Shown here: in pieces, positions 13,657 to 41,472 of the stretch
Numbering within the stretch: position 1 is the first letter of the stretch
Layout of the letters: each line of letters opens with the position of its first letter
Assembly (NCBI GenBank): GCA_036276435.1
Contig: DASUOW010000152.1
Location: 1 to 46,623 of the forward strand
DNA: 46,623 nt
Source of the DNA: Gemmatimonadales bacterium
Lineage (GTDB): Bacteria > Gemmatimonadota > Gemmatimonadetes > Gemmatimonadales > GWC2-71-9
Reading direction: 5' to 3'
Made by a program: the position numbers and the translations under genes
The notes under the pieces: generated by a model
The model's database searches: none
What the model was told of the DNA's origin: nothing
Seen by the model: only the letters and a program-made list of their open reading frames with translations

Positions 13657-14091
13657 TCAGGGCCAGCGCGCGAGCATCTGGCGCAGTTCGTCGCGGTGGT
13701 TGCTCTCGTCGGCGAGCAGGGTGTCGAAGTCGGCCGCCAGGCCGATCTCGCCCGCCGCCTCCGCCATGCCGCGACGCTTGATGTAGCGCTGGATGGTCTC
13801 GAGCTCGGCCTCGAGGGCCGCCTGCACCATCTCCTTGGCGTCGTGCACCACCTTCACCGGGGCGGGCTCCGCCGCGGGCACGCCGCCGAGCGCCGAGATC
13901 TTGTCGGCCAGCAGCTGGGCATGGCCAAGCTCCTCGGGGATCTCCGAGGCGAAGAAGGCCCGCAGCTCCTGCCGATACGGGCCCTGCACCATGCTGGCGT
14001 AGAGCCGGTACATGATCACGGCCTGGAACTCGCCGCGCAGGTCCTCGTTGAGCCCGTCGATCAGCGCCTTCATTGCGTCGCTCACGGTCAA
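13657..14091 (-). CDS. Ferritin-like (bacterioferritin/Dps superfamily) protein
   Basis: The ORF is 144 aa. It has a four-helix di-iron-like pattern (LNEDLRGEFQAVIMY...EELGHAQLL...ALEAELETIQRY...ADESNHRDEL). The start is uncertain: TTG 14091, GTG 14085 or ATG 14073. An AAGGAG lies at 14102..14097. Confidence 0.75.
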   Translation of the reverse strand: MTVSDAMKALIDGLNEDLRGEFQAVIMYRLYASMVQGPYRQELRAFFASEIPEELGHAQLLADKISALGGVPAAEPAPVKVVHDAKEMVQAALEAELETIQRYIKRRGMAEAAGEIGLAADFDTLLADESNHRDELRQMLARWP

Positions 14092-14148
14092 GTCACTCCT
14101 TGAGAGTTCTGGTGTCCTGCGGATGTCGCGGGGGTGCCGTCGACGTAT

Positions 14149-14901
14149 CTACCCCACATGCCCGGCACGGATGCCGAGCGGCCAGCGAACGATGCGCCGG
14201 GACCCCGTGTCGCGCCAGCGAGGCGCCAAGCGCTCCGCGAGCTCGGCGAGCGGGTCGCGGCCCTCCGCCACCCGCCCGCGCGCCACCGCCGACCAGGTAC
14301 CGACGTAGCCCAGCAATTCGTCACGGGACATGACGGCGTGCATCTCCATCGCGGGAACCGCGATGGGCTCGAAGGGGAAGGGCAGCGTGGTGAAGCCCGC
14401 GTCGACCAGCACCCGCTCGGGCGGCCAGTAGCGACCGATCCGCTCCTCGTAGAACCACGTCAGGATCGGGTCGAGATCGTCGCCGGCCTGCATGGCGCCG
14501 TAGCACCAGAGCGCGACGGCGCCCCGCGGCGCCAGCACCCGGCGCGCCTCGGCGTAGAACGCGTCGAGGTCGAACCAGTGGGCCGCCTGTGCCGCGGTGA
14601 CGAGATCCACGGCGCCGTCGGCCAGCCCCGACTGCGACTCGCGGCCCTCGACGTAGGTGACGCGCTCATGCCGCGTGGCGTGCGCCAACTGTCCCGCGCT
14701 CGGGTCGGTGGCGCGCACCTGCTCGAAGTGCTCGGCGAGGCCGATCGCCGCCTGCCCGGAGCCGGTGCCGCAGTCCCAGGCGAGCCGGCGGCCCGGCGCC
14801 ACGGAGGCGAGGAAGGCGAACAGCTCGGCGGGATAGTGCGGCCGGAAGCGCGCGTAGTCCGCGGCCTGCTCCGAGAAGTGGTCGGCGAAGCCCGGGCTCA
14901 C
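14149..14901 (-). CDS. Class I SAM-dependent methyltransferase (Methyltransf_11-like)
   Basis: The GTG at 14901 overlaps the permease stop (GTGA), giving 250 aa. LAWDCGTGSGQAAIGLAEHF is the SAM motif I. DLVTAAQAAHWFD and LAPRGAVALWCY are post-I motifs. Confidence 0.82.
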   Translation of the reverse strand: MSPGFADHFSEQAADYARFRPHYPAELFAFLASVAPGRRLAWDCGTGSGQAAIGLAEHFEQVRATDPSAGQLAHATRHERVTYVEGRESQSGLADGAVDLVTAAQAAHWFDLDAFYAEARRVLAPRGAVALWCYGAMQAGDDLDPILTWFYEERIGRYWPPERVLVDAGFTTLPFPFEPIAVPAMEMHAVMSRDELLGYVGTWSAVARGRVAEGRDPLAELAERLAPRWRDTGSRRIVRWPLGIRAGHVG

Positions 14902-15689
14902 GGTGCCCCGGCTGCACGCGCCGGCCGGGGACGACCGATGAGGCGCGCCTCCGGATCGAACAGCAGCGTGGCGAGCAGGAAGGCCACCACGGTCCACGCC
15001 ACGAGCACCACCACGTTCAGGCCGAACCCGTACTCCGCCGGCTGTCCGAACGCGCGCCGTACCAGCTCCACCATGTGCGTCACGGGGTTGACCGACGCGA
15101 AGAGGGCGAGCGGCCGCGGCAGCTGCTCGGCCGGGTAGAGCGCCCCGCTCAGGAACAGGAGCGGGAAGAGGAGCACGTTGATGATCCCGGCGAAGTTCTC
15201 CACCGAGCGCAGCCGCGACGCCACCAGCAGCCCCAGCACCGCGGAGACCGCCGAGGCCACCACGAGCGTGCCGACGGCGAGCAGCAGCTGCGGCAGCGTC
15301 GGGCTCGTGATGAACGGCGCCGCGGCGAGCACCACGAGCGCCTGCGTCGTGCCCATCACCGTCGCCGAGAGCGTGCGCCCGAACAGCACGGCACCCGGGC
15401 CGGCGGGACTCGCGAGCATGAGCCGCAGCATGCCGAACTCGCGATCGTAGACGGTGGACACCGCCGTCAAGGCGCCGCCGAAGAGGCACGCCATGACCAG
15501 CACGCCCGGGTACACGAACTCCCGGTAGGGCATCCCCGACGGCAGTTGCGCGATGGCGTTGTAGCCCGTGGCCACGAGCAGGAGCCACACGAATGGGCGC
15601 GCGATGCCGCCGAGGAGGCGGCTGGGCTGCCGCCGCACGCGACGCAGGTCGCGCGTGGTGATGGCGAGGGCGGTGGTGAGCGCGCTCAT
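14898..15689 (-). CDS. ABC-2 type transporter permease
   Basis: 263 aa. The ATG at 15689 overlaps the ATPase stop (ATGA). It has six hydrophobic segments, and the N-terminal TTRDLRRVRRQPSRLLGGIARPFVWLL is typical of DrrB/ABC-2 exporters. Confidence 0.85.
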   Translation of the reverse strand: MSALTTALAITTRDLRRVRRQPSRLLGGIARPFVWLLLVATGYNAIAQLPSGMPYREFVYPGVLVMACLFGGALTAVSTVYDREFGMLRLMLASPAGPGAVLFGRTLSATVMGTTQALVVLAAAPFITSPTLPQLLLAVGTLVVASAVSAVLGLLVASRLRSVENFAGIINVLLFPLLFLSGALYPAEQLPRPLALFASVNPVTHMVELVRRAFGQPAEYGFGLNVVVLVAWTVVAFLLATLLFDPEARLIGRPRPARAAGAP

Positions 15690-16609
15690 GCCGTCACCCG
15701 CGCGCCGGTGCGCGCGAAGTAGGCGTCCTCGAGCGTGGGCGCGCGGAGCACCGAGCGGGTGAGGCCCGTGGCGCCGGCGGCGCGCTCGAGAACGTGCTCC
15801 TTGCGGCCGTCCAGCCCGATGCGCACCGCGCCCTCGCTCGGCACGACGAGCTTCGCGAGCCCCTCACCCTGCAGCGCCGCCGCGAACGCCGCGGCGCCCG
15901 GCCCATCCACCTCGAGCACCGCGTCACCGAACGGTGCCAGCAGCTCGCGCGGCGTGCCGTCGGCCACCACCCGGCCCTTGGCCAGCATGAGCACGCGGTC
16001 GGCGGGTTCGGCCTCGTCGAGGTAGTGGGTCGAGAAGAGCACCGCCGTGCCGCGCGCGCGCCGCTCGGTGTCGAGGAATCCCCACAGCCGCTCGCGGTGC
16101 TCGGGGTCGAGGCCCACGGTGGGCTCGTCGAGGATGAGCAGCGCGGGCGCGTGCAGCGTGGCGCGCGCGATGTCGGCGAGGCGGCGCCAGCCGCCCGACA
16201 GCTCGCGCGCGAGCTGGCCGGCGCGGGGCCCGAGCCCCATGCGTTCCAGCGCACCGTCGACGGCGGCGCGCGTGTCGCGGCGCGCCACCCCGGCCATGCC
16301 GGCGGCGAACTCGAGATTCTCGCGGACGGTGAGGAACGGGTCGACGGTGGGCTCCTGGAACACGAGCCCGAGGCGGCAGCGCGCGGCGCGACGCGCGCCC
16401 GTCACGTCGTGCCCGAAGATGCGCGCACTGCCGCGGCTGGGCGAAAGCAGCGTGGCCAGCAGCAGCATCGCGGTGGTCTTGCCGGCACCGTTGGGCCCGA
16501 GGAGGCCGACCAGCGCGCCGGAGGGCACGACGAGGTCCAGCGCCTCGAGGGCGCGGACCTCGCCGTAGTCGCGGCCGAGGCCGGCGGCCTCGATCGCGGG
16601 GGTGCTCAC
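15686..16609 (-). CDS. ABC transporter ATP-binding protein (DrrA/ABC-2 exporter type)
   Basis: The GTG at 16609 overlaps the pqqE stop (GTGA), giving 307 aa. It has Walker A GPNGAGKTT, the signature LSGGWRR and Walker B LLILDEPTVGLD, plus a C-terminal extension of about 80 aa as in DrrA-like ATPases. Confidence 0.88.
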   Translation of the reverse strand: MSTPAIEAAGLGRDYGEVRALEALDLVVPSGALVGLLGPNGAGKTTAMLLLATLLSPSRGSARIFGHDVTGARRAARCRLGLVFQEPTVDPFLTVRENLEFAAGMAGVARRDTRAAVDGALERMGLGPRAGQLARELSGGWRRLADIARATLHAPALLILDEPTVGLDPEHRERLWGFLDTERRARGTAVLFSTHYLDEAEPADRVLMLAKGRVVADGTPRELLAPFGDAVLEVDGPGAAAFAAALQGEGLAKLVVPSEGAVRIGLDGRKEHVLERAAGATGLTRSVLRAPTLEDAYFARTGARVTA

Positions 16610-17697
16610 GCCGTCTGCGGCTCCGGGGCGATCCTGCGGTAGGTGAACGGCACCTCGCGGCCCGCCTGGCCCAGCGCATCGCTGATCAGGTGATGATGCG
16701 GGCTCAGGTGGCAGATGGGGTCGGCGTTGGCCGCGTCGCCGGTGAGCGCGAACGCCTGGCAGCGGCAGCCGCCGAAGTCGACGCACTTCCGCTCGCAGCT
16801 CACGCACGGCTCCTTCATCCACGCGTCGCCGCGGAACGCGGTGAACAGCGGCGACTCCTGCCAGATCCACTCGAGCGAATGGTCCTTCACGTTCGGCATG
16901 GGGAGCGTGGTGATGTTCGTGGCGCCGTGGCACGGCAGCGCCTTCCCGTCCGGCGCCATCACCACGTACACCTTGCCCCAGCCGCCGTAGCACGGCTTGG
17001 GGTACTTCTCGTAGTAGTCCGGCAGCACGAACACCATCTGCATCCGGCCACGATACTTCTGCCGCAGCCGCTCGGCCACCTCGAAGGCGCGGTCCACCTG
17101 TTCGGGCGAGGGCATGAGCGCCTCGCGGTTCACGAGCCCCCAGCCGTAGTACTGCGTGTTGGCCAGCTCGACGCGGTCGGCGCCCAGGTCGGCGGCGAGC
17201 TCGATGATCTGCTCGATGCGGTCGAGGTTCTCGCGGTGCAGCACCACGTTCACCGTGAAGGCGAAGTCCAGCTCCTTCACCAGCGCCGCGGCGGCCCGCT
17301 TCTGCTTCACCGAGCGCACGCCGGCGATCCGCTCGGCGTTGTCGTCGTCGGCGTCCTGCAGCGAGATCTGGATGTGCTCGAGCCCCGCTTCCTTGAAGCG
17401 CTCGGCGCGCTGGCGGGTCAGGCCGAGGCCCGAGGTCACGAGGGTGGTGTAGAAGCCCTCCCTTCGCGCGTGCTCCGCGATCTCCTCGCAGTCCTTCCGC
17501 ACGAGCGGCTCGCCGCCCGAGAGGCCGAGCTGCAGCACGCCGAGCCGGCGCGCCTCGGTGAGCACGCGCTTCCAGGTGTCGGTGTCGAGCTCCTGGTTCG
17601 CCCGGATGAGGTCGAGCGGATTGGAGCAGTAGGGGCAGTGCAGCGGGCAGCGATGCGTCAGCTCCGCCAGCAGCGTGGTCGGTCGGTCAGTGGTCAC
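16606..17697 (-). CDS. pqqE: PqqA peptide cyclase, radical SAM/SPASM enzyme PqqE
   Basis: 363 aa with a GTG start. It has the CPLHCPYC radical-SAM cluster motif and a C-terminal SPASM cysteine cluster (CYGGWG...CHG...CVSCERKCVDFGGCRCQA). The start overlaps pqqD by 11 nt. Confidence 0.93.
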   Translation of the reverse strand: MTTDRPTTLLAELTHRCPLHCPYCSNPLDLIRANQELDTDTWKRVLTEARRLGVLQLGLSGGEPLVRKDCEEIAEHARREGFYTTLVTSGLGLTRQRAERFKEAGLEHIQISLQDADDDNAERIAGVRSVKQKRAAAALVKELDFAFTVNVVLHRENLDRIEQIIELAADLGADRVELANTQYYGWGLVNREALMPSPEQVDRAFEVAERLRQKYRGRMQMVFVLPDYYEKYPKPCYGGWGKVYVVMAPDGKALPCHGATNITTLPMPNVKDHSLEWIWQESPLFTAFRGDAWMKEPCVSCERKCVDFGGCRCQAFALTGDAANADPICHLSPHHHLISDALGQAGREVPFTYRRIAPEPQTA

Positions 17698-17977
17698 GGA
17701 TCAGCTCCCGCGCGACGAGCCCGTCGAGGTACTCCGTCACGTCCTTGAGGATCTCCTCGACGCTCGCGCTGTCCTCGGCGCCGTAGCGCGACTTGAGCGC
17801 CGCGGCGATGTCGGCAAGCGTGCGACGGCCGTCGAGCAGCTTGAGGATCTCGGCGCCCGTCTCGTTCAGCAGCACCGCGCCCTCGGGATACAGCAGCACG
17901 GGGCGGTTGCGCACGGCGTCGAACTCGACGCGGGCGAAGCGCCAGAGCGAGGGGGTCGAGGTGGGGATGAGCGCCAT
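17687..17977 (-). CDS. pqqD: PQQ biosynthesis peptide chaperone PqqD
   Basis: 96 aa. PVLLYPEGAVLLNETGAEILKLLDGRRTLADI is the PqqD/RRE pattern. It lies between pqqC and pqqE. Confidence 0.9.
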   Translation of the reverse strand: MALIPTSTPSLWRFARVEFDAVRNRPVLLYPEGAVLLNETGAEILKLLDGRRTLADIAAALKSRYGAEDSASVEEILKDVTEYLDGLVARELIRDH

Positions 17978-17983
17978 CGTGCG

Positions 17984-18736
<753 letters not shown>

Positions 18737-18738
18737 GG

Positions 18739-19308
18739 TCACTGTCCGGAGGGGCCCACGTAGTCGGGCACGCCGTTGGGGTAGTCGTTGGTGGCGCCGC
18801 CGGCCTTCACGGTGCGCGCCACGCGATCGGCGAAGCTGCGGGTGCCGATGCGCGTCATCGCCACGGGCTCGCCCTTGAGCTCGGTGGAGTCGTCGAGGAC
18901 GATCTCGCCGGTGGGCACGTGGATGAGCTGGCCCGTCAGCAGCCAGATGAGGTTGCTGGTCTTGCTCACCTTCAGCATCACCACCCAGGCGGCGCCGGAC
19001 CGGCGCGCCGCCTCGCGGGCGCAGGCCACGGTGACGCGGCACGCGGCATCGGCCGGCACGACGACCGCCTGTGCGCCGAGGCGATCCCGCAGGCGGTCGT
19101 TCATCGTCGCCGTCGCCGTCGTCGCCGCCACGGTATCGCTGGCCTCGAGCACGTTGGCCTGCTCGTTGTAGAGCGCCGTGGGGAGCAGTGCCACCTTCGC
19201 GTCGGGCGCCGCGAGGGGTGGCCGGGCGGGACTGACGGCCACGCCCTGCGCCGAGGCGAGGGCAGGTGATGCGAGCAGGCCGAGCAGCACGGCGGTCGAA
19301 CGGATCAT
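18739..19308 (-). CDS. Secreted protein of unknown function embedded between pqqB and pqqC (189 aa)
   Basis: ATG at 19308 with a GAGGAG Shine-Dalgarno. The signal peptide is MIRSTAVLLGLLASPALASA/QG. The stop lies 2 nt before the pqqC ATG and the start lies 20 nt after the pqqB stop. It has two Cys (ACRVTVAC). I could not assign a family with confidence. Confidence 0.7.
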   Translation of the reverse strand: MIRSTAVLLGLLASPALASAQGVAVSPARPPLAAPDAKVALLPTALYNEQANVLEASDTVAATTATATMNDRLRDRLGAQAVVVPADAACRVTVACAREAARRSGAAWVVMLKVSKTSNLIWLLTGQLIHVPTGEIVLDDSTELKGEPVAMTRIGTRSFADRVARTVKAGGATNDYPNGVPDYVGPSGQ

Positions 19309-19328
19309 CGTTTCCGGCTCCTCGCGTC

Positions 19329-20237
19329 TCAGACGTCGAACGTCATGCCGTCCATCCCGACCTCGATGCCCGCCTGCGCCACGGCGGCGCGCTCGGGCGA
19401 GTCCTCGAGCAGGATGGGATTGGTGTTGTTGATGTGAACGTACACGCGGCGGGGCGTCGCGAGCCCGGCGAGCTGCGCGAGGCTGCCGCCCTCGCCGGAG
19501 AGCGGCAGGTGGTCGATTTCGCGCGCGCGCTTAGTGCCCACGCCGAGCGCGATCATCTCGTCATCGGTCCAGAAGGTGCCGTCGAAGAGCAGCAGGTCGG
19601 CGGCGCCCAGGCGCGCGAGGAGCCGGGCATCGAGGCCGCCGCAGGCCGGTGCATAGGCCAGCGTGCCGCCGGTGCGACGATCGTGCACGAAGAGGCCCAC
19701 GGTATGACCGGGCTCGTCCCGCGATGCGAAGCGCGGCGGCCCCGCCGGCACCACGAACGGTTCCACCGTGATGCCGCTTGGCCCTTCGCCCGGGTGGGCC
19801 AGCTCCGTGGGCATGCCCACCGAGAGGGCGCAGGTGCGCACCTCGGCGAACGCGCGCGTCACGGGCAGGAGGCGCGTGTCGTGGTCGAGGGTGTGCAGCA
19901 CGGGCGGCGTGGCGTACAGCTGGAGCGAGCGGCCCTCGCGCAGCAGCACGAGGCCCAGCGAGTGGTCGAGCTCGGCGTCGGTCAGGACCACGCCGGCCAC
20001 GGCCACGTGCCGGTTCCCCTCGGGCTCCGCCACCGGCAGTCGCGCCAGCTGCTCGCGCACGTCGGGCGAGGCATTGAGCAGGAACCAGCGGTTCCCGTCC
20101 GCGCTCACCGCCACCGACGACTGCGTGCGCGGCCGCGCCCGGCCGGGCTCGCGACGCGCGACCCGGCAGGTGGGGCACCAGCAGTTCCACTGCGGGAAGC
20201 CGCCGCCGGCGGCCGTTCCCAGGAGGATGACCCTCAT
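19329..20237 (-). CDS. pqqB: PQQ biosynthesis protein PqqB (metallo-beta-lactamase fold)
   Basis: 302 aa. MRVILLGTAAGGGFPQWNCWCPTC...LTDAELDH...VHINNTNPIL is the typical PqqB signature. Confidence 0.92.
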   Translation of the reverse strand: MRVILLGTAAGGGFPQWNCWCPTCRVARREPGRARPRTQSSVAVSADGNRWFLLNASPDVREQLARLPVAEPEGNRHVAVAGVVLTDAELDHSLGLVLLREGRSLQLYATPPVLHTLDHDTRLLPVTRAFAEVRTCALSVGMPTELAHPGEGPSGITVEPFVVPAGPPRFASRDEPGHTVGLFVHDRRTGGTLAYAPACGGLDARLLARLGAADLLLFDGTFWTDDEMIALGVGTKRAREIDHLPLSGEGGSLAQLAGLATPRRVYVHINNTNPILLEDSPERAAVAQAGIEVGMDGMTFDV

Positions 20238-20240
20238 CGG

Positions 20241-20267
20241 AATAGAAAAGGCCCGCTTGCGCGAGCC
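20241..20267 (-). terminator. Hairpin plus U-tract between pqqA and pqqB (attenuator or RNA-stabilising stem-loop)
   Basis: On the minus strand, GGCUCGC-GCAA-GCGGGCC is a 7-bp stem (one G-U pair) with a GNRA loop at 20267..20250. It is followed by UUUUCUAUU (20249..20241). The U-tract ends 3 nt before the pqqB ATG. Confidence 0.6.
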
Positions 20268-20293
20268 CCTTCACCCTTCATCACCTGAATCGC

Positions 20294-20368
20294 TTACAGG
20301 GTCGCGACGTAGGCGGTGACTTCCATCGTGACGGCGACGATCTCGGCTTCGGGCTTGGTCCAGCGCAT
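20294..20368 (-). CDS. pqqA: PQQ precursor peptide PqqA (24 aa)
   Basis: It is too short for the ORF track. My translation is ATG CGC TGG ACC AAG CCC GAA GCC GAG ATC GTC GCC GVC... = MRWTKPEAEIVAVTMEVTAYVATL*, containing the conserved W-x-K-P and E-x-x-x-Y (EVTAY) cross-link residues. A GGAGG lies 6 nt upstream of the ATG. It sits directly upstream of pqqB. Confidence 0.85.
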   Translation of the reverse strand: MRWTKPEAEIVAVTMEVTAYVATL

Positions 20369-20507: not shown

Positions 20508-20563
20508 TCACCCCACCCATTGGGTTCCTTCACCCACCCAACGTTGGGTCATCTCACCCACCG
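20508..20563 (-). promoter_or_regulatory. Three TCACCC(C)ACC direct repeats containing two ACCCA..TGGGT palindromes (candidate enhancer/UAS)
   Basis: The repeats start at 20509, 20530 and 20554, with spacing of 21 and 24 bp. The palindromes are ACCCAtTGGGT (20515..20525) and ACCCAACGTTGGGT (20536..20549, a perfect 14-mer). They lie 85-140 bp upstream of the -24 element. The last repeat overlaps the regulator's stop codon. Confidence 0.45.
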
Positions 20564-21936
20564 ATGCCGTACTTCTTGAGCCGATAGCGGAGCGTATCCC
20601 GGCTGATGCCGAGGCGCTGCGCCGCCCGGGTCTGGTTGCCGCCGCTCTGCTGCAGGGCCTGTTCGAGCATGGCGCGCTCCCATTGTCCGAGGTCCATCCC
20701 ATCGGGCGGAAGGCCGGGCACCGGAGCCGGGGCCCCGCCATCGGGCTGCATGAGCTCGTCGGGATTGTTGAGCGAGAGATGCTCGGCACCCAGCTCCGCC
20801 TCGTGGCTCCAGAGGATGGCGCGCTCCATCACGTGGCTCAGCTCGCGCACGTTGCCGGGCCACGGGTAGGCGCGCAGCAGCGCCTGCGCCTCGGCGCTGA
20901 TGCGGCGCACGTCGCGGCCGTACTTGGCGGCGTACTGCTTGAGGAAGTGCTCGGCCAGGATCAGCACGTCGTCGGCCCGTTCGCGCAGCGGCGGCAGGCG
21001 GAGCAGGATCACGGCGAGGCGGAAGAAGAGGTCCTTCCGGAACCGCTCGCCCTGCACGTCCTTCTGGAGGTCGCGGTTGGTGGCGGCCAGGATCCGCACG
21101 TCGATCTTGCGGTCCCGGATGCCGCCGACACGGCGCACCGTGCGGTCCTCGATGGCCCGCAGCAGCTTGCCCTGCAGCGCCAGCTCGATGTCGCCCACCT
21201 CGTCGAGGAAGATGAACCCGCCCTCGGCGGCCTCGAACAGCCCGAGCTTCGATTCCTTGGCGTCGGTGAAGGCGCCGCGCTCGTAGCCGAACAGCTCGGC
21301 CTCCATGAGCGTGGCGGGCAGCGCCGTGCAGTTCACGTCGATGAACGGCCGGCCGCTCCGCGGGCCCGAGGCGTGGATGGTGCGCGCCACGAGGCCCTTG
21401 CCGGTGCCCGTCTCGCCGGTGATGAGCACGGGCGGCGTCTCGTCGAGCGCCGCCACCTGGCGCGCGCGGTCGAGCACCGCGCGCATCGCCGGCGAGTCGC
21501 CGAGGATGCCGCCGAGGGACACCTCGCGGGTGGCCTGCTTGCGGTAGTACGACAGCTCCTGCCGCAGCCGCGAGTTCTCCCGGGCGCGGTCGGCGAGGAG
21601 CTTCAGCTCGTCGAGGTCGACGGGCTTCTTGATGTAGTCGAACGCCCCGAGCTTGACGGCCTCCACCGCGCCCTCGATGGAGCCGAACGCCGTCATCACC
21701 ACCACCGAGATGGTCGGGTCGAACTCCCGCACCTTCCTCAGCAGCTCGATGCCGTTCATGCCCGGCAGCCGCACGTCGGTGAACACCACGTCGGGCTTGA
21801 GCCGCTCGAGCATCTCGAGCGCCGACTCGGCGTCGCCCGCCACCTCCGTCTCGTAGCCCGCCTCGGTGAGGAAGACCTTCACCACCCGGGCGAGGGTGCG
21901 CTCGTCGTCGACGACGAGAATGGTGCCGTTGCTCAT
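20554..21936 (-). CDS. Sigma-54-dependent response regulator (NtrC family: REC, AAA+ and Fis-type HTH domains)
   Basis: I chose the ATG at 21936 within over-extended ORF 20554..23481 (460 aa). It has a REC domain (ILVVDDE...DVRLPGMNG), Walker A GETGTGKG, the sigma-54 contact loop GAFTDA (GAFTGA variant), and a C-terminal HTH (NQTRAAQRLGISRDTLRYRLKKYG). There is an ATGA overlap with the kinase stop. Confidence 0.92.
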   Translation of the reverse strand: MSNGTILVVDDERTLARVVKVFLTEAGYETEVAGDAESALEMLERLKPDVVFTDVRLPGMNGIELLRKVREFDPTISVVVMTAFGSIEGAVEAVKLGAFDYIKKPVDLDELKLLADRARENSRLRQELSYYRKQATREVSLGGILGDSPAMRAVLDRARQVAALDETPPVLITGETGTGKGLVARTIHASGPRSGRPFIDVNCTALPATLMEAELFGYERGAFTDAKESKLGLFEAAEGGFIFLDEVGDIELALQGKLLRAIEDRTVRRVGGIRDRKIDVRILAATNRDLQKDVQGERFRKDLFFRLAVILLRLPPLRERADDVLILAEHFLKQYAAKYGRDVRRISAEAQALLRAYPWPGNVRELSHVMERAILWSHEAELGAEHLSLNNPDELMQPDGGAPAPVPGLPPDGMDLGQWERAMLEQALQQSGGNQTRAAQRLGISRDTLRYRLKKYGIGG

Positions 21937-23456
21937 GCCACCCCTGCCGGCTCGCGAGCCGGGGCTGCGGGAAGGACGAGCCGCACCGTGGTGCCCTCGC
22001 CCGGGGCGCTCGTGATCTCGAGCCGTCCGCCGTGCTGCTCCACGAACCGCCGCGCGATGGCGAGCCCGAGCCCGGTGCCCTCGCTGCGCGTGGTGAAGAA
22101 CGGCTCGCACACGTTCGGCAGCACGTCGGCGGGGATGCCGCGGCCCGTGTCGCGGATGTCGAGCAGGACGCGATCCGCCGCCGCGGCGCCCTCGAGCCGG
22201 AGCCGGCCGCCGCCGGGCATGGCGTCGAGCGCGTTGGAGACGATCTCCAGGATCGCCGTCTCCACCTTCATCGGGTCGACGTGCACGTCGGGCAGCGCCT
22301 CGGGGATCGCCACCTCGAGCGCGATGCCGCGATCGGCCAGCAGGCTGCGCATCGGGGCGATGGCCCCGTCGACCAGCGCGCCGAGCCGCTCGCGCATCTG
22401 GTGCGTGGGGGCGGGCCGCGAGAAGGTGAGCAGGTGCGCGATGCGCTTGTCGAGGCGGTCCACTTCCTCGATGATCGCCTGCAGCGACTCGCGCGCGGCC
22501 GGCGAATCGGGGTGCCGGAGGGCCAGCTGCGCCGAGGCGCGCAGGCTCGCCAGCGGGTTGCGGAGGCCGTGCGCCACCGCCGCCGCCATCTGGCCCACCG
22601 AGGCGAGCTTCTCCGACTCCACGAGCTGGGCCTGCGTACGCTCGAGCTGCGCGATCTTCGCCGCAAGCTCCGCGTTGAGCGACTCGCGCGCCGCACTCGA
22701 CTCGCGCAGCCGCGCCGTCATGTCCCCGAAGGAGCGCGCGAGGTCGCCGATCTCGTCGCGCGCGTCGGTGCGGATGGGATGGTCGAGGTTGCCGGCGCCC
22801 ACCACGGCCATCGCGCTCCGCAGGTCGTTGATGGGCCGCACGAGGCTCCGCGCGAACGCCGCCGCGAGCAGCAGCCCGGCCGCGATCGCGGCGGCCATGA
22901 TGGTGAAGAGCAGGCGCCGCTCGCGATCGACGATCTCCTCCACGCGCACGAAGGCGCGCTGCACGGTGGCGATGCGCGCCTGGCGGTAGATCTCGTGATT
23001 GAGCGTGGTCAGCTCGGGGAAGAGCCGCGTCTTGAGCTCGCGCTGCGCGAGGCGGTAGCCCTCGTCGCGCCGGCGGGCGGTGGTGAGCACCATGACGCTG
23101 TCGGTGACGGAGTCGATCTGGGCGCGCAGCCGACGCACCTGCTCGGCATAGCGCCGCTCCTCCGGGCGCAGGTCGGCCTCCCAGCGCTCGATCCAGTAGG
23201 TCACCACCTGCCGGTTGGTCTCCAGCTCGCGCGGCACGTCCTCCTCGAACCCGCTGAGCGCCCGCCAGACGATCTCCCCCTGCGCCTGCAGCGCCGACTC
23301 CACCTCGGCGTAGGTCCGCGAGCGCCCGAGCCCCTGGCCCAGGTTCTCGAGCGCCTCGCGTTCCAGCCGGTTGCTGCGATAGGCGAGCGCCGCCACGAGG
23401 AGCAGCGGGATCGCCATCAGCGCGAAGGCGAGTCCGAGGCGGCGTTGGAAGGTCAT
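21933..23456 (-). CDS. Sensor histidine kinase with an extracytoplasmic sensor, HAMP, HisKA and HATPase domains
   Basis: 507 aa. It has two TM segments flanking a domain of about 170 aa, a HAMP domain (INDLRSAMAVVGAGNLDHPI...EIGDLARSFGDM), an H-box (AAVAHGLRNPL) and N/G boxes (IVSNALDAM, DTGRGIP, GTGLGLAI). Confidence 0.9.
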   Translation of the reverse strand: MTFQRRLGLAFALMAIPLLLVAALAYRSNRLEREALENLGQGLGRSRTYAEVESALQAQGEIVWRALSGFEEDVPRELETNRQVVTYWIERWEADLRPEERRYAEQVRRLRAQIDSVTDSVMVLTTARRRDEGYRLAQRELKTRLFPELTTLNHEIYRQARIATVQRAFVRVEEIVDRERRLLFTIMAAAIAAGLLLAAAFARSLVRPINDLRSAMAVVGAGNLDHPIRTDARDEIGDLARSFGDMTARLRESSAARESLNAELAAKIAQLERTQAQLVESEKLASVGQMAAAVAHGLRNPLASLRASAQLALRHPDSPAARESLQAIIEEVDRLDKRIAHLLTFSRPAPTHQMRERLGALVDGAIAPMRSLLADRGIALEVAIPEALPDVHVDPMKVETAILEIVSNALDAMPGGGRLRLEGAAAADRVLLDIRDTGRGIPADVLPNVCEPFFTTRSEGTGLGLAIARRFVEQHGGRLEITSAPGEGTTVRLVLPAAPAREPAGVA

Positions 23457-23589
23457 GAAGGCAAGATACAGCGTCCGGCAAACCTTTTCATCGCTTGTGG
23501 ATACAATTTCTGAGACGCGGCGGGTGGAAAGTCTTGCCCCGCCGAGTCTGAAGGTCTACTATAGGAGAGCCCAGCCGGGAGGCCCTCTG

Positions 23590-24702
23590 ATGGCGGATGC
23601 GTTTCGAAGCGCCGACGACTTCGACGAACAGGCCCACCAGCTGTACAACGAAGCTCGCTACGACGAAGCCCTCGCCCTGCTGCGCGAGGGTCTCTCCCTC
23701 TACCCCAACTCCGTCGAACTGCACATCGGCTCCGCCTACGCCTGGATGGCGATGGAGGAGTTCGCCTGGTCGCGCCGCAGCTTCGACACCGCGCTGACGC
23801 TCGATCCCGATCACGAGGACGCGCTCGCCGGCATGGGCGAGGTGCTCCTGAAGCTCGGCGATCGCACCGGGGCGATGCGCTGCTTCGAGCGCATCGTGGC
23901 GCTGGGGTTCCAGGACGACCTCGAGCTCATGCTGCAGCTCGGCCGTGCGAGCTTCCGCGAGGGCCTGCTGGCGCAGGCGCACCGCTACTTCGAGCTGGCC
24001 GTGGGCGCGCATCCCGACTCGCCCGACGCGGCGGCGTGCCTGGGGTACGCCGCGCACCGGCTGGGCAACGATGCCGGCGCACTCTTCTGGATCCGGCGCG
24101 CCCTCGAGATCGAGCCGCACTACGCCGAGGCGCGCATCTACCTCGCCAACATGCTGTACGACCGGGGCGAGACCGAGGCGGCGCTGCGCCACCTCGAGCG
24201 CACCGAGCCGGACGATCACTACGACGAGCTGGGCCTGTGGCGCTGCGTCGAGCTCAAGAAGGTGGTCTATCGCCTGCCCGACGAGGATCCCGAGCTCGCG
24301 CCGTGGTACCAGCGCCTGGGCGAGGTGGCCGGCGAGCCCGACCCGCTCGAGATGCTCCTCAACGAGATCGAGGCGCAGCTGCCCGACGGCACGGTGCGCA
24401 ACCCGCACCAGCTCGAGCTCTTCGGCACGCTGCTCACCGAGCTGCACGCCATGCAGAAGCGGCCCGGCGACCATCACTTCATCGCGACGCTCGCCGGCCA
24501 GACGTTCCGCGGCACCTGGGAGGAGATCCTTCACCAGATGAAGGAGGCCGAGCCCGAGTATGCCGACGCCCCGATGCAGGAGTTCATGGCGAGCCTCGCC
24601 CGGCGCGGCCGCACCGAGACCGGCATCGTGATCCCCACGACGGACGCCGAGGCGTTCATCCGCGGCAGCGCCCAGGCTGGGGTGTTGCGCATCATCCAGT
24701 AG
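23590..24702 (+). CDS. TPR-repeat protein with an uncharacterised C-terminal domain
   Basis: I chose the ATG at 23590 (GGGAGG lies upstream), giving 370 aa. The N-terminal ~210 aa contain several TPR-like repeats (YNEARYDEALALLREGLSLYPNS..., AEARIYLANMLYDRGETEAALRHLE). I did not recognise the C-terminal ~150 aa. Confidence 0.75.
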   Translation: MADAFRSADDFDEQAHQLYNEARYDEALALLREGLSLYPNSVELHIGSAYAWMAMEEFAWSRRSFDTALTLDPDHEDALAGMGEVLLKLGDRTGAMRCFERIVALGFQDDLELMLQLGRASFREGLLAQAHRYFELAVGAHPDSPDAAACLGYAAHRLGNDAGALFWIRRALEIEPHYAEARIYLANMLYDRGETEAALRHLERTEPDDHYDELGLWRCVELKKVVYRLPDEDPELAPWYQRLGEVAGEPDPLEMLLNEIEAQLPDGTVRNPHQLELFGTLLTELHAMQKRPGDHHFIATLAGQTFRGTWEEILHQMKEAEPEYADAPMQEFMASLARRGRTETGIVIPTTDAEAFIRGSAQAGVLRIIQ

Positions 24703-24723
24703 GGTGGGGACGCACCCGGGGAG

Positions 24724-24865
24724 GTCATTCCGAGCGCAGCGAGGAACCTGCTCGGCGACCGCCCCGACATCCGTGGCTTTGCCCTGATGGACGGACTGCT
24801 GGCCGGGGCTGGCGCCGCAGGGGTCGGCCGGATTCGAGCCGGTTCCTCGCTGCGCTTGGAATGAC
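24724..24865. repeat. MITE-like 142-bp element with 25-bp terminal inverted repeats
   Basis: GTCATTCCGAGCGCAGCGAGGAACC (24724..24748) matches the reverse complement of 24841..24865 (GTCATTCCAAGCGCAGCGAGGAACC) at 24 of 25 positions. It is intergenic between the TPR and M16 genes and has no coding capacity. It shares the TCATTsCGAG / GCGCAGCGAG core with the element at 10977. Confidence 0.8.
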
Positions 24866-24958
24866 GTCTTTCATCACCATGACATCGCGGGTCCCTTTCA
24901 TCGCCTCTCGACGTCCGACTCTGGACTCCGAACCACGCCCCGTTTCTCTTTCGCGCCC

Positions 24959-27586
24959 ATGACCCTCTCCTCGACGCTCGCGCCCGCCGGCCGCTGGACC
25001 GCCGGTGTCCATCGCGAGGTGCTGCCCAACGGCCTGACGCTGCTCGTGCAGCGCGACGACTCGGCACCCGCCGTGGCGGTCGTGACCCACGTGCGCGCCG
25101 GCTTCTTCGACGAGCCCGATCACTGGGTGGGCATCTCGCACGTGCTCGAGCACATGTTCTTCAAGGGGACGCCCACGCGCGGCGTCGGCGCCATCGCGCG
25201 GGAGACGAAGGCCGCCGGCGGCTACCTCAACGCCTCCACCAGCTACGACGGCACGTCGTACTTCGTGGTGCTGCCGGCGTCGCAGCTCGCCGCGGGCATC
25301 GCGGTGCAGGCCGATGCGCTCCGCCACTCGCTCATCGACGCCGGCGAGCTCAAGCGCGAGCTGCAGGTCATCATCCAGGAGGCGCGCCGCAAGCAGGACT
25401 CGCCCGACGCGGTGGCCCACGAGACGCTGTTCGAGGTGATGTTCGACCGGCACCGCATCCGCCGCTGGCGCATCGGCCGCGAGGCGGAGCTGGCCGCGTT
25501 CACCCGCGACGACGTGGCCGGCTACTACCACTCGCGCTACGTGCCGGCGCGCACCGTGGTGTCGGTGGTGGGCGCCATCGACGTCGACGAGGCCGTGGCC
25601 CTCCTCCGCCGCACCTACGGCGACTGGCCCGCGGCCGACGGCGCGGTGAACCCGAGTCCCGAGGAGCCGGCGCATCGCGGCGTGCGCGCGCGCACGCTGC
25701 GCGGCGACGTGTCGCGCGCCGAGCTGGTGCTGGGGTGGCACACCGTGCCACCGCTCCACGCCGACGCCATCGCGCTCGACATGGCGGCGGGCCTGCTCTG
25801 CTCGGGCCGGGGCGCGTGGCTCTATCGGCTGCTGCGCGAGCCCGGGGTCGTCACGGGCATCGGCGCCTCCAACTTCACGCCCACCGAGCTCGGCGTGTTC
25901 ACCATCGCCGCCGATCTCGAGCCGGCCCAGCTCGACCGTGCGCTCGAGGGCATCGCGGCGGCCGTGGCGCGGCTCGTCACCGAAGGCCCGGGCGCCGTGG
26001 AGCTCGAGCGGGCGCGCACGCTGATGCGCTCGCGCTGGGCGCGCCGCATGGAGTCGATGGAGGGCCGCGCCGCCGCCCTCGCCGCCACCGAGGCGCTCGG
26101 CGGCATCCATCTGCTCGACGAGGACTTCGAGCAGCTCGCCGCCGTGACGGCCGAGGATGTGCGCCGCGTGGCCGAGCGCTACCTGGCGCCGGACGCCGTG
26201 AACGGGGTCGTGTTCCTGCCCGAGGGCGAGGGCGAGGACCTCACGCCCGAGCGGCTCGCCGCCGCCTTCGCCACGTCGGGCCGCACCGCCATCGTGCCGC
26301 CGGTGCTGCCGGGGCTGCCGGTGACACCGGCGCGGACCGTGAGCGGGTCGCGCACCGCCGACGTGCTGCACGTGCCGCTGCCCGGCGTCGACCTGCTCGT
26401 GCGCCGCAAGGCGGGCGTGCCGTCGGTGACGCTGGGCTATTACGTGCCGCGCTACACCATCGAGGACCCGGCCCACGCGGGCCTCGGCGCGCTCACCATC
26501 CGCAGCGTGGTGCGCGGCGCGGGCACGCTCGACGCGTCGGCGCTGGCATACGCCACCGAGGGCCTGGGCGGCACGCTCTCCGCGAGCGCGTCGCTCGACT
26601 GGACGGGCCTCAGCCTGGGAGCGCTCAGCGACAACCTCGGACCCGCGGCGGTGCTGCTGCGCCTCGCGGCGCGCGAGCCCGCCCTCGCCGAGACGGACGT
26701 GCTCGCCGAGCGCGGCGTGATGGCGGAGGAGGCCCGGCAGGTGGCGGACGACATGTTCCGCTACCCGTTCCAGCTCGCCTTCGCGGCCGCGTTCGCGGAG
26801 CGCGGCTACGGCCGCTCCATCGGCGGGCTGCCCGAGACGCTCGCGACGCTGGACGTGGCGCAGGTGCGCGAGTGGCACCGCACGCGCTTCGCGCCGGCGC
26901 GCGCCACCATCGTCGCCGTCGGCGACCTGGATCCCGACCGTGCGGCCGCCGAGCTCGCCGGCATCTTCGGCGACCTGCCCGCGGCCGTCGCGGGCGAGCT
27001 GCCGCCGCCGCAGGCGCAGCGGCCCGACGCCGACGCCTGGTCGCGCGTCGTGGAGCGTGACAAGAAGCAGACGGCGTTCGCGATGGTGTTCCCGGGCCCG
27101 GGTCGCCGCGACCCGTTCCGCCACGCCGCTGACGTGTGGAGCGCCATCGCCAGCGGGCTCGGCGGCCGGCTCTTCGAGGCGCTGCGCGACAAGCGCTCGC
27201 TCGCCTACACCGTGCTGGGCAGCTCGTGGTCGCGGCGCGACGGCGGCGCGATGCTCACCTACATCGCCACCTCGCCGGAGCGCGAGGAGGAAGCGCGCGC
27301 CGCGATGCTGGTGGAGCTGCGGCGCTTCGCGGACGAACTCGTGTCGGAGGCGGAGCTGGCGCTGGGCGTGAACTACCTGGCGGGGCAGGCGGAGGTGCAC
27401 CGGCAGAGCGGTGCCGCGGTGCTGGGCGAGATCGTCGACGCGTGGATCGCGGGCGAGGGCCTGCAGGAGCTCCACGATCCGGCCGCACGGTATCGCGGCG
27501 TCACCGCCGAGATGGTGCGCGAGGTGGCGGCGCGCTACCTCACCGGGCCGCGCGCCGAGGGCGTCGTGCGGGGAGTGCGCCGCTAG
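24959..27586 (+). CDS. Double-domain M16 (pitrilysin/insulinase) family zinc peptidase (PqqL/PqqF-G-like architecture)
   Basis: 875 aa. The first half has the inverted zinc motif HVLEHMFFKGT. The second half is M16-like but lacks HxxEH. There is no obvious signal peptide. Confidence 0.85.
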   Translation: MTLSSTLAPAGRWTAGVHREVLPNGLTLLVQRDDSAPAVAVVTHVRAGFFDEPDHWVGISHVLEHMFFKGTPTRGVGAIARETKAAGGYLNASTSYDGTSYFVVLPASQLAAGIAVQADALRHSLIDAGELKRELQVIIQEARRKQDSPDAVAHETLFEVMFDRHRIRRWRIGREAELAAFTRDDVAGYYHSRYVPARTVVSVVGAIDVDEAVALLRRTYGDWPAADGAVNPSPEEPAHRGVRARTLRGDVSRAELVLGWHTVPPLHADAIALDMAAGLLCSGRGAWLYRLLREPGVVTGIGASNFTPTELGVFTIAADLEPAQLDRALEGIAAAVARLVTEGPGAVELERARTLMRSRWARRMESMEGRAAALAATEALGGIHLLDEDFEQLAAVTAEDVRRVAERYLAPDAVNGVVFLPEGEGEDLTPERLAAAFATSGRTAIVPPVLPGLPVTPARTVSGSRTADVLHVPLPGVDLLVRRKAGVPSVTLGYYVPRYTIEDPAHAGLGALTIRSVVRGAGTLDASALAYATEGLGGTLSASASLDWTGLSLGALSDNLGPAAVLLRLAAREPALAETDVLAERGVMAEEARQVADDMFRYPFQLAFAAAFAERGYGRSIGGLPETLATLDVAQVREWHRTRFAPARATIVAVGDLDPDRAAAELAGIFGDLPAAVAGELPPPQAQRPDADAWSRVVERDKKQTAFAMVFPGPGRRDPFRHAADVWSAIASGLGGRLFEALRDKRSLAYTVLGSSWSRRDGGAMLTYIATSPEREEEARAAMLVELRRFADELVSEAELALGVNYLAGQAEVHRQSGAAVLGEIVDAWIAGEGLQELHDPAARYRGVTAEMVREVAARYLTGPRAEGVVRGVRR

Positions 27587-35025: not shown

Positions 35026-36150
35026 CTATCCGGTCGCGAGCCCCAGCTCCCCCGGTGCGGCCGACAGCTGCCCCCGTTCGGCCTCCTCCTCCACCACGCA
35101 CTGGATGAAGTGCAGCTTGGTGACCACGGCCCGGTTCATCACGAACGGGTAGATGTCCGGCTGCCCCATGCTGCGCGCCGTCTCGTTCAGCACGGCCGTG
35201 AGCACCACCCACGCATTCATCCAGTCGAGGAACATCCCCGCGCTCGCCGCGGGCTCCCGCCGGTAGAGCACGTCCGCGGTGAAGGGCGTGATCTGCAGCC
35301 GGACCTTCGTGGTGTCGATGCCGTAGCTCGCGACGGTCTGCAGCGTCGAGCGCAGGTGCATGTAGTGCGCCCAGCTCTCGGCCCAGTCCTCCCACGGGTG
35401 CATGGTGGCGTAGCTGCTGATGTAGCGATTGCGCCAGTCGGACGGCGGCCCCTCGCGGTAGTTCCGCTGCAGCGCCTCGCCGTAGTCCGCCCGCTCGTCG
35501 CCGAACAGCTCGCGGAAGCGCGGCAGCCACGCCGTGTCGCGGACCAGCACGTTCCAGTAGTAGTGCCCGATCTCGTGGCGCAGGTGCCCGAGCACCGTGC
35601 GGTAGGGCTCGCTGAGCGCGTCGCGGTGCTGCTCGCGGTAGTCGTCGTCGGCTTCGGCGACGTTGATGGTGATGAGCCCGCCGGCGTGGCCGGTGAGCAC
35701 CGGCGGCTCGTCCGGCAGCGACTCGAGGAAGTCGAAGACGAGGCCGGCGGGGTTGTCGGCGCTGCGCGGTCCGATGGGCAGGCCCCAGCTCTGCAGCGCG
35801 AAGAGGAGCCGCCGCTTGGCCGACTCGATGTCCGCCAGCCGCTTGGCGTTCCGCGGCCGCGTGAGGTCGGGAATGGTGCGCGTGAGCCGGCACGAGACGC
35901 AGGCGGTGTGCGGCTCGCCGTCCGGGATGAGCCAGTTGCAGAGCGCCGCCTTCGTCCGGTGCTCGCAGAACCAGAAGCGCGGCGCCGGCCGTCGCGCGTC
36001 GCCCGTCAGCGACCAGGTGCCGTCGCCGTGGGAGGTCAGGGCGCCGAGCGCGTGACTGGTCGGGTCGTAGGCCACCTCCGACCGGCAGGCCAGGCAGTGG
36101 GTGTTGTCGAAGAAGAGCGGCTGGCCGCACGCGCACTGGAACGTCTTCAT
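35026..36150 (-). CDS. Putative zinc-ribbon plus zinc-metallopeptidase domain protein (HExxH)
   Basis: 374 aa. It has an N-terminal Cys-rich zinc ribbon (CACGQ...CLAC, ...CVSC) and an HEIGH zinc motif (LGHLRHEIGHYYW). Its start lies 1 nt after the pflA stop. Confidence 0.7.
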   Translation of the reverse strand: MKTFQCACGQPLFFDNTHCLACRSEVAYDPTSHALGALTSHGDGTWSLTGDARRPAPRFWFCEHRTKAALCNWLIPDGEPHTACVSCRLTRTIPDLTRPRNAKRLADIESAKRRLLFALQSWGLPIGPRSADNPAGLVFDFLESLPDEPPVLTGHAGGLITINVAEADDDYREQHRDALSEPYRTVLGHLRHEIGHYYWNVLVRDTAWLPRFRELFGDERADYGEALQRNYREGPPSDWRNRYISSYATMHPWEDWAESWAHYMHLRSTLQTVASYGIDTTKVRLQITPFTADVLYRREPAASAGMFLDWMNAWVVLTAVLNETARSMGQPDIYPFVMNRAVVTKLHFIQCVVEEEAERGQLSAAPGELGLATG

Positions 36151-36151
36151 G

Positions 36152-36988
36152 TCAGAAGGCCTTCAGCCCTTCCTTCCGGAACACCTCGCACGCCTGCTCG
36201 CACAGCTCGGTCGTCGGCGGCTCGGTGGACGGCAGCGTGTAGTCCAGCCCGAGCCGCTCCCACTTGAAGCGGCCCATCTGGTGGAACGGCAGCACCTCGA
36301 CGCGTTCGACGTTGCCGAGTTTCGCGGCGAAACCCGCGATCCGGGCGATGTCGTCCATGTCGTCGGTGAGGCCCGGCACGAGGACGAAGCGTACCCAGAT
36401 GGGGCGCCGCCGGGCAGCGAGACGCTCGGCGAACGCCAGCGTGTGCGCCGGATCCATGCCCGTCAGGCGGCGGTGTCGGTCGGGGTCCCACGTCTTCAGG
36501 CCGAGCATCACGAGGTCGATGGTATCGAGCTCGGCGTCGGTGAGGTGCTCGCCGTTGTAGCCGTTGGTCTCGATGGTGGTATGGATGCCCATCGCGTGCA
36601 CCGCGCCGAGCAGCTTCGCGGCGAAGCGGTGCTGCATGAGCGGGTCCCCGCCGCTCAGGGTGAAGCCGCCCTTCATGGCCTTCAGGCCGTGGCCGTACTT
36701 CCGCACCTCGTCGGCGGCGCGGGTGACCGTCACCGGCAGCCCGTTGGAGAGGGTCCAGGTGTCCGGGTTGTGGCAGTACCGGCACCGCCACATGCACCCG
36801 GTGGTCCAGGCCACCAGCCGGACGCCGGGACCATCGACGGCGGAGCCGGTGGTGAAGGAGTGCAGGAAGCCCATGTCGCCGGTGCGGAGCGCCGTGCGCA
36901 CGTCGGTCTCCGGCACGCCGGTGCCGAGGTCGACCCGGAGCTCGAAGGGGCTCTTCGCCTCCAGCGGGGTCATCAGCTCCTCAGGCAT
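36152..36988 (-). CDS. pflA: Pyruvate formate-lyase activating enzyme (radical SAM)
   Basis: 278 aa. It has [26 protein letters not shown] (the Cx3Cx2C glycyl-radical activase motif). Its start overlaps the pflB stop by 8 nt. Confidence 0.9.
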
Positions 36989-39257: not shown

Positions 39258-39278
39258 GTGCTCCTGGATTCTGCGCCC

Positions 39279-40475: not shown

Positions 40476-40497
40476 GTCGCGTCCCTCCGGGCCGCGA

Positions 40498-41448: not shown

Positions 41449-41472
41449 CGTGGAATTTCCTCAAGGGACGAC

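Follow-up and report, generated by a model that had tools for sequence, protein, structure and literature searches.

A DUF3280 gene between pqqB and pqqC in a Gemmatimonadales bacterium encodes a candidate periplasmic accessory of PQQ and quinoprotein systems

Introduction

PQQ is synthesised in the cytoplasm, yet the dehydrogenases that use it are periplasmic. Its passage across the inner membrane, its protection from loss and its loading into apo-enzymes are still poorly understood. In Methylorubrum, the periplasmic solute-binding protein PqqT binds PQQ as part of an import ABC system. For the receptor PqqU, the published criterion is Y, F or W at position 99 together with R304 and R365 (PMC12124388). 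PedD, an exported pentapeptide protein, is a recognised and uncharacterised accessory of PQQ-ADH clusters in Pseudomonas (PMC12997753).

Here we analyse a stretch of 46,623 nt (the window; contig DASUOW010000152.1, assembly GCA_036276435.1) from a soil Gemmatimonadales bacterium, in which a gene of the Pfam family PF11684 (DUF3280) lies between pqqB and pqqC. We found no paper linking DUF3280 to PQQ; the one paper found to mention PF11684 names it among families enriched in Calvin-cycle genomes (PMC7895386). The naming of the family invites confusion: NCBI and the Pfam text label PF11684 'DUF2380', a name that in papers denotes PF09533, the unrelated Myxococcus SitA6 lipoprotein toxin/nuclease family.

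The gene and its operon

The DUF3280 gene (18739..19308, minus strand, 189 aa) lies in the order histidine kinase, sigma-54 response regulator, pqqA, pqqB, DUF3280, pqqC, pqqD, pqqE, ABC ATPase, ABC-2 permease and methyltransferase-like ORF. Because long ORFs arise commonly by chance at a GC content of 71%, that of the window, the reality of this ORF was checked. Its ATG is the first start codon past the upstream in-frame stop and is preceded by a Shine-Dalgarno sequence, GAGGAG, 9 nt upstream (19318..19323, minus strand, read from the sequence). GC at codon positions 1, 2 and 3 is 0.71, 0.55 and 0.93, dN/dS against the closest copies is 0.26-0.38, and the product has 736 homologues with E values down to 1e-87; a Pfam profile match and a structure model, described below, complete this evidence. 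The ORF is a real gene, more than a chance reading frame, and the 189-aa frame with its GAGGAG singled out in the original prediction is confirmed by coding statistics and homologues.

The neighbouring genes, all on the minus strand, were assigned with NCBIfam models: pqqB (19329..20237; TIGR02108, 368 bits, cut-off 245), pqqC (17984..18736; TIGR02111, 316 bits, cut-off 240), pqqD (17687..17977; TIGR03859, 73 bits, cut-off 46) and pqqE (16606..17697; TIGR02109, 535 bits, cut-off 381). The scores of the first two, above the cut-offs of equivalog models, verify the neighbours that had been recognised by eye. A pqqA gene (20294..20368, minus strand) encodes 24 residues, MRWTKPEAEIVAVTMEVTAYVATL, with the E-x3-Y motif; upstream of it are a sigma-54-dependent response regulator (20554-21936) and a histidine kinase (21933-23456). 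On the other side, an ABC transporter ATPase (15686..16609, minus strand), which begins with a GTG and overlaps the end of pqqE by 4 nt, is followed by an ABC-2 type permease (14898..15689, minus strand). The pqqB stop codon (19329-19331) is separated by 20 nt from the DUF3280 ORF, and the stop codon of the latter (18739-18741) by 2 nt from the pqqC ATG (18734-18736; TGAccATG), the same spacings as originally given. The operon is tightly packed, with short gaps and 4-nt overlaps, and a promoter/terminator scan found no promoter- or terminator-like sites within it. The DUF3280 gene is embedded in the pqq operon.

Between pqqA and pqqB (20238-20296, minus strand) lies a 12-bp GC-rich hairpin followed by a U-run (-23.7 kcal/mol, z -3.3), which could set the ratio of pqqA to pqqB-E expression; the simple terminator scan did not call it. 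The ABC ATPase and permease genes (14898-16609, minus strand) follow pqqE with 4-nt overlaps, and such a pair after pqqE recurs in more than 12 related operons, with or without the DUF3280 insert. Their best NCBIfam matches are ABC families of PQQ-ADH systems, TIGR03864 and TIGR03861, both below cut-off. We regard the pair as a candidate PQQ exporter, which, if true, would address how PQQ leaves the cytoplasm. The kinase and regulator are kept in most related Gemmatimonadales-type pqq operons (52-92% identity for the kinase and 66-94% for the regulator), an arrangement that suggests dedicated two-component control of PQQ synthesis. In this lineage, both pairs commonly accompany pqqABCDE, whether or not the insert is present.

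Several further genes were noted in the window. On the plus strand, pointing away from the regulator genes, 23455-27586 encodes a TPR protein and an M16 zinc peptidase of 932 aa with two modules; the same two genes adjoin the pqq operon in a related locus, L005. The peptidase could supply a PqqF/G-type protease; PqqF and PqqL are not its closest matches among solved structures, and it is not specifically PqqF- or PqqL-like. The same strand continues after the ABC genes (13657-14901, minus) with an ORF resembling SAM methyltransferases, which begins with a GTG that overlaps the stop codon of the permease gene, and with a gene for a ferritin-like/Dps protein; the methyltransferase also follows the permease in L005 and L089. 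A cluster for pyruvate formate-lyase, its radical-SAM activase, acetate kinase and phosphotransacetylase (35026-41460, minus strand) points to a capacity for mixed-acid fermentation in this Gemmatimonadales genome.

Protein family, export and predicted fold

The window protein matches PF11684 over residues 38-147 with 31.5 bits (E 2.5e-7), a narrow margin above the gathering threshold of 30.1, yet the family label is the same in the precomputed annotation and in all homologues listed. The profile match places in PF11684 (DUF3280) a protein that the original prediction had left unassigned by eye. Relatives score 39-61 bits against the same profile; homologues with names are Gemmatimonadales or Gemmatimonadota MAG proteins, and nearly all of the 736 homologues are from Gemmatimonadales. 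An NCBIfam search of the protein returned nothing meaningful, the family profile matched no PDB sequence, and tblastn of 72,556 plasmids gave no match. In an alignment of 67 homologues with ~55% overall identity, KVSKTSNLIW, LDDSTELKG and R.FA.RV.RT show little or no variation, and a K-x-S-K-x-S-x-L-x-W / E-L-K-G core is common, along with a Cys pair, to the window protein and distant PF11684 members.

A Sec signal peptide is predicted at residues 1-20 (19249..19308, minus strand) from its shape and conservation: MIRSTAVLLGLLASPALASA, followed by QG, has R3, a hydrophobic core and A-S-A, with n-, h- and c-regions of the classic type. At the expected cleavage site, between ASA and QG, A20 is nearly invariant and Q21 invariant in the 67-homologue alignment. 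The signal peptide contains neither a lipobox Cys nor a twin-Arg motif, and there is no Cys before residue 90. The protein is probably exported via Sec, and the cleavable signal peptide of the original prediction (ALASA/QG) remains likely, with the AxA-Q site conserved in the homologues. The two nearby cysteines that had been noticed in ACRVTVAC are C90 and C96 (C-x5-C; 19021..19041, minus strand), and their conservation extends across the family: among relatives 24-58% identical, C96 never changes and the conservation of C90 is at least 90%, with a spacing that varies from x3 to x6. Since the pair persists in distant relatives with variable spacing, we consider it probable that C90 and C96 form a structural disulfide. 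The G/P-rich C-terminal tail, NDYPNGVPDYVGPSGQ, is likewise present as described, though variable, and is modelled with low confidence.

The AlphaFold2 model (mean pLDDT 88, pTM 0.80) contains a folded core at residues 38-170 (18799..19197, minus strand; mean pLDDT of 10-residue blocks 89-98) of beta-beta-alpha-beta-alpha-beta-beta-beta-alpha topology, within which the KVSKTSNLIW and LDDSTELKG segments lie. Foldseek against the PDB retrieved PelC, TolB, FlgT, LpoB and CsgG with probability 1.0 and E values of 1.7e-6 to 3e-4, together with HpaA in the same E range, and TM scores on target length for the LpoB/TolB-N/PelC/FlgT group were 0.55-0.64. As modelled, the window protein is a single-domain, TolB-N-like periplasmic module with no lipid anchor; structure prediction, which had been proposed as a check, yielded a confident TolB-N/LpoB/PelC-like alpha/beta fold. 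The Pfam profiles of LpoB (PF13036) and TolB_N (PF04052) did not match the window protein itself; among its relatives, P0173 exceeds the threshold for LpoB (24.7 against 22.3) and P0146 that for TolB_N (24.2 against 22.4). Neither profile searches nor Foldseek gave a solute-binding-protein domain or similarity in the window protein.

Distribution of the insert

How far the arrangement is kept was determined in two samples. The first was a genome scan with one representative genome per species, in which 83 stretches encode the DUF3280 family; the 80 that were kept all belong to Gemmatimonadales/Gemmatimonadota. The gene lies between pqqB and pqqC in seven of them (L044, L047, L049, L052, L064, L075 and L081) and is not pqq-linked in the other 73. 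The same order is found in three loci with homologues 67-82% identical to the window protein (L005, L006 and L007), where the gene overlaps pqqC by 4 nt. Together with the window, the arrangement is thus kept in 11 loci, whose PqqB proteins are only 55-65% identical at the extremes. The second sample comprised 80 pqq operons recovered from metagenomes by a scan for PqqC relatives, and none of the 80 carries the insert. With this absence, and with no NCBIfam PQQ model matching it, the window protein stands outside the canonical PqqA-G set, and the pqqB-DUF3280-pqqC architecture is a rare operon variant.

The insert behaves as a cleanly delimited cassette, present or absent among near-identical operons. 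In the insert-free L088, with 94% identity in PqqB and 96-97% in PqqC, a gap of 17 nt separates the two genes. A PqqC tree puts all placeable insert-bearing operons in one clade (L081 was too fragmented and was left out), and the insert-free L088, L089, L090 and L101 are nested among them. The DUF3280 tree does not group the pqq-linked copies together (0/100 bootstraps for their monophyly), which led us to reject a specialised pqq paralogue of single origin. Their close relatives include the non-pqq copies L012 and L027, which sit among unrelated genes, and one genome holds both a pqq-linked (L081) and an unlinked (L061) copy. A shortened loop before C90 was considered as a signature of pqq linkage and rejected, as it occurs in L012 and L027 and is absent from the pqq-linked L044, L047, L064 and L075. 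Since the pqq-linked copies are polyphyletic and have close relatives outside pqq operons, the gene appears to move in and out of the operon; judged from this distribution, it is a mobile, dispensable addition and not part of the biosynthetic core. The original prediction had asked whether the position is conserved, and the answer is divided: the position is kept in 11 loci, and the gene is missing from the whole PqqC-based sample. It had also held that absence from relatives with the same operon would speak against a PQQ role, and such absence was found in part, in the 80 PqqC-sampled operons with L088 among them; of the 80 genome loci with the family, 73 lie outside pqq operons.

The surroundings of the unlinked copies differ by sub-clade and include aminotransferase, SRPBCC, DinB, TPR and DUF4403 genes, among others. 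No pqq, PqqU or quinoprotein gene was found within ~6 kb of the 73 unlinked Gemmatimonadales loci, and no single neighbour is conserved across the ~77 Gemmatimonadales loci compared, where the largest neighbour cluster, of 17 loci, reflects sub-clade synteny. One synteny block has a 'PQQ' beta-propeller gene 1-2 kb downstream, but its product resembles BamB and is no quinoprotein (TIGR03075, 112 bits, cut-off 480), and a gene on the opposite strand sets it off from DUF3280; it was rejected as evidence of a PQQ connection.

Distant relatives

Other links to PQQ come from relatives 30-42% identical to the window protein, outside its own subfamily. In at least nine proteins, DUF3280 is fused to a DoxX/DoxD-like membrane domain, with weak DoxD matches (25-28 bits). 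Two such fusion genes (L168 and L170) are divergent from a cluster in which a TonB receptor gene stands between two genes for small proteins. In L168 this cluster is followed by a PQQ-dependent dehydrogenase of the methanol/ethanol family (689 bits, cut-off 480) and then by a cytochrome c, and L170 has a cut homologue of the dehydrogenase at the same place. The L168 receptor has PqqU as its best NCBIfam family (373 bits, against 160 for the next) and E. coli PqqU as its best PDB match (E 2e-85; next match 4e-14), and it keeps F99, K274, R304 and R365. In three further loci (L172, L173 and L174), DUF3280 is unfused, shares ~35% identity with the copy in L168 and is likewise encoded divergently from a TonB receptor; these receptors are 37-39% identical to those of L168 and L170, have PqqU as best family and keep F99, R304 and R365. 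Both receptor lineages score 319-373 bits for PqqU against 160-186 for the next NCBIfam family, values far under the PqqU equivalog cut-off of 1200 bits. The divergent pairing of DUF3280 with receptors bearing the PqqU signature (3759-8068 in L168) may represent an uncharacterised PQQ-scavenging module. Small unannotated proteins (182 and 196 aa) flank the receptor; a DoxD-like gene lies nearby in L173, and an ECF sigma factor gene in L172 and L174. Another distant member, L169, shows no PQQ link.

DUF3280 is also fused to a pentapeptide-repeat domain, in either domain order, in 7 of 10 long representatives. Secreted fusions of this kind are P0131, P0145, P0156, P0163, P0178, P0190 and P0161, the first of which has a second, degenerate DUF3280-like stretch. 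The pentapeptide domain of the fusions and a pentapeptide protein from a Ruegeria XoxF5 cluster share a non-repeat LAAAT..PADLS cap, an NQxMGxMR insert and an AKNxDKA tail, and the Ruegeria gene adjoins genes for a 'quinoprotein relay' and a SoxYZ-like carrier. The NQxMGxMR insert recurs in a Methylorubrum homologue; a homologue from Methylocella, with an uninformative gene context, aligns over the same architecture but falls outside the strict motif patterns. A plain tblastn search with this domain was non-discriminating (a prophage gene also matched), and motifs and best-domain scores were used instead: the shared non-repeat motifs are lacking in the prophage pentapeptide protein, and the scores were 147, 125 and 115 bits (125 for the Ruegeria protein), against 41 for this generic prophage protein. 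A 204-aa gene upstream of the Ruegeria pentapeptide gene was considered as a DUF3280 member and rejected.

Discussion

We propose, giving the idea an even chance, that the window protein is a dispensable periplasmic accessory of PQQ and quinoprotein systems which acts by docking to a partner. The ~17 kDa PF11684 protein, predicted to be Sec-exported and to be co-expressed with pqqABCDE, would consist of a single TolB-N/LpoB/PelC-like domain and, by analogy with the same fold elsewhere, would dock onto another envelope protein. Conceivable partners are PQQ transporters, apo-dehydrogenases and PedD-like proteins, and through such docking the cofactor would more easily reach, or stay with, its periplasmic enzymes. 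Both the PQQ-related activity and the docking mechanism are what we infer from comparative data. The gaps of 20 and 2 nt, the overlaps with pqqC in L005-L007 and the uninterrupted operon argue for this proposal, as do the upkeep of the gene order in 11 loci with divergent PqqB, the pairing with PqqU-like receptors in two DUF3280 lineages, the dehydrogenase gene of L168 and the pentapeptide fusion; PelC, the TolB N-domain, FlgT and LpoB are all periplasmic protein-interaction modules. Against it stand the 73 unlinked loci, the 80 PqqC-sampled operons lacking the insert, the polyphyly of the pqq-linked copies, the receptor scores below the equivalog cut-off, and the restriction of the receptor and fusion links to relatives of 30-42% identity. 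The PQQ-related role put forward in the original prediction is supported by the comparative evidence of receptor pairing and XoxF-type fusion, and weakened by the unlinked majority and the dispensability of the insert.

A rival reading is a general envelope protein unrelated to PQQ, i.e., a free-standing docking module, perhaps associated with the cell wall or outer membrane like LpoB, TolB-N or PelC, which landed by chance in the pqq operon of one clade and has been carried along. We consider this explanation unlikely on balance and yet serious, because the window subfamily is mostly unlinked to PQQ, in contexts that vary by sub-clade, and because the insert is dispensable, a clean cassette of polyphyletic origin; the structural neighbours, moreover, all act in envelope assembly and not in cofactor handling. 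Chance does not readily explain the pairing with PqqU-like receptors across 37% receptor identity, the XoxF-type fusion and the PQQ-ADH neighbour, or the retention of the insert, tight against or overlapping pqqC, across deep operon divergence. By our own rough estimate, fewer than 1% of random loci would have a pqq or PqqU gene no more than two genes away, and three lineage-level PQQ links plus a fusion seem unlikely to have arisen by chance. A soluble periplasmic carrier that takes PQQ from an exporter in producers, or from PqqU in scavengers, and delivers it to apo-quinoproteins would draw on the same genomic contexts as the docking accessory, and the invariant basic and aromatic residues K113, K116, K145, R157, R162, R165, W108 and W122 could conceivably bind the tricarboxylate PQQ. 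We judge such a carrier, one of the roles raised in the original prediction, improbable: the fold is that of a TolB-N-like protein-docking module, a class in which no Foldseek-matched member is a small-molecule carrier, similarity to solute-binding proteins is lacking, and the gene is dispensable in near-identical operons.

That the protein serves the ABC-2 exporter downstream of pqqE, as its periplasmic subunit or partner, has next to no likelihood; an exporter partner had also been raised originally. Insert and exporter genes share the operon and are both non-canonical additions to pqqABCDE, but all four combinations occur: both (the window, L005, L049 and L052), insert alone (L044, L047, L064 and L075), exporter alone (L089, L091-93, L096, L099, L105, L109, L119 and more) and neither (L101, L110 and L131). 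The presence of the insert is independent of the exporter, and we rejected this partnership on co-occurrence. It is also highly improbable that the protein is a thiol-disulfide redox protein, with a redox-active Cys pair coupled to the quinone pool via DoxX/DoxD and acting, for example, on quinoprotein disulfides. The fusions to DoxX/DoxD, the separate DoxD-like gene in the L173 cluster and the family-wide Cys pair would fit such a role, but the DoxD matches are weak, the fold is not thioredoxin-like, and a spacing of x3 to x6 is typical of a structural staple and not of a catalytic CxxC.

Returning to the docking accessory, we speculate, with considerable reservation, that DUF3280 as a whole is an unrecognised periplasmic part of PQQ trafficking or quinoprotein maturation, which can be encoded in the pqq operon of producers, is partnered with PqqU in scavengers, works with PedD-type proteins and is sometimes anchored by DoxX. 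At the family level, the association with PQQ is suggestive. If the speculation is true, it offers an entry point to the steps that lie between the transport of PQQ and its insertion into apo-enzymes. A real PQQ link would also hint for the first time at what PedD-type proteins do; otherwise the locus amounts to a variant pqq operon with an itinerant envelope gene in it. An anonymous DUF becomes a concrete candidate, through an operon insert, pairing with receptors of PqqU signature, a neighbouring PQQ alcohol dehydrogenase and an XoxF-type pentapeptide fusion. Binding and interaction tests should be easy, since the window protein is small and soluble.

Compared with known systems, PqqT fills the role that was originally proposed for the window protein, but it has a solute-binding-protein fold, to which the window protein bears no likeness in sequence or structure. 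PqqU (YncD), the TonB-dependent PQQ importer, has its signature kept in the receptors that pair with distant DUF3280 members; PqqU forms a barrel in the outer membrane and has no homology to the window protein, and none is encoded in the window. PedD and the pentapeptide proteins of XoxF clusters are exported, uncharacterised accessories, and relatives of the window protein are fused to a domain of the XoxF-cluster type; pentapeptide proteins are beta-helices, whereas the window protein has an entirely different fold and no pentapeptide repeats. LpoB, TolB-N, PelC and FlgT are periplasmic and act by docking, and the window protein has, as modelled, the same fold. LpoB and PelC are lipoproteins, in contrast to the window protein, which has no lipobox or anchor, and TolB has a beta-propeller that the window protein does not have; the Cys pair and the KVSKTSNLIW and LDDSTELKG motifs set the DUF3280 family apart from this group. 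Pfam describes PF11684 as proteobacterial, whereas the members found here form a large Gemmatimonadales branch, alike in size and in the Cys pair. With the window protein, a Pfam family that is known but uncharacterised, and whose fold is a known one, gains a new member.
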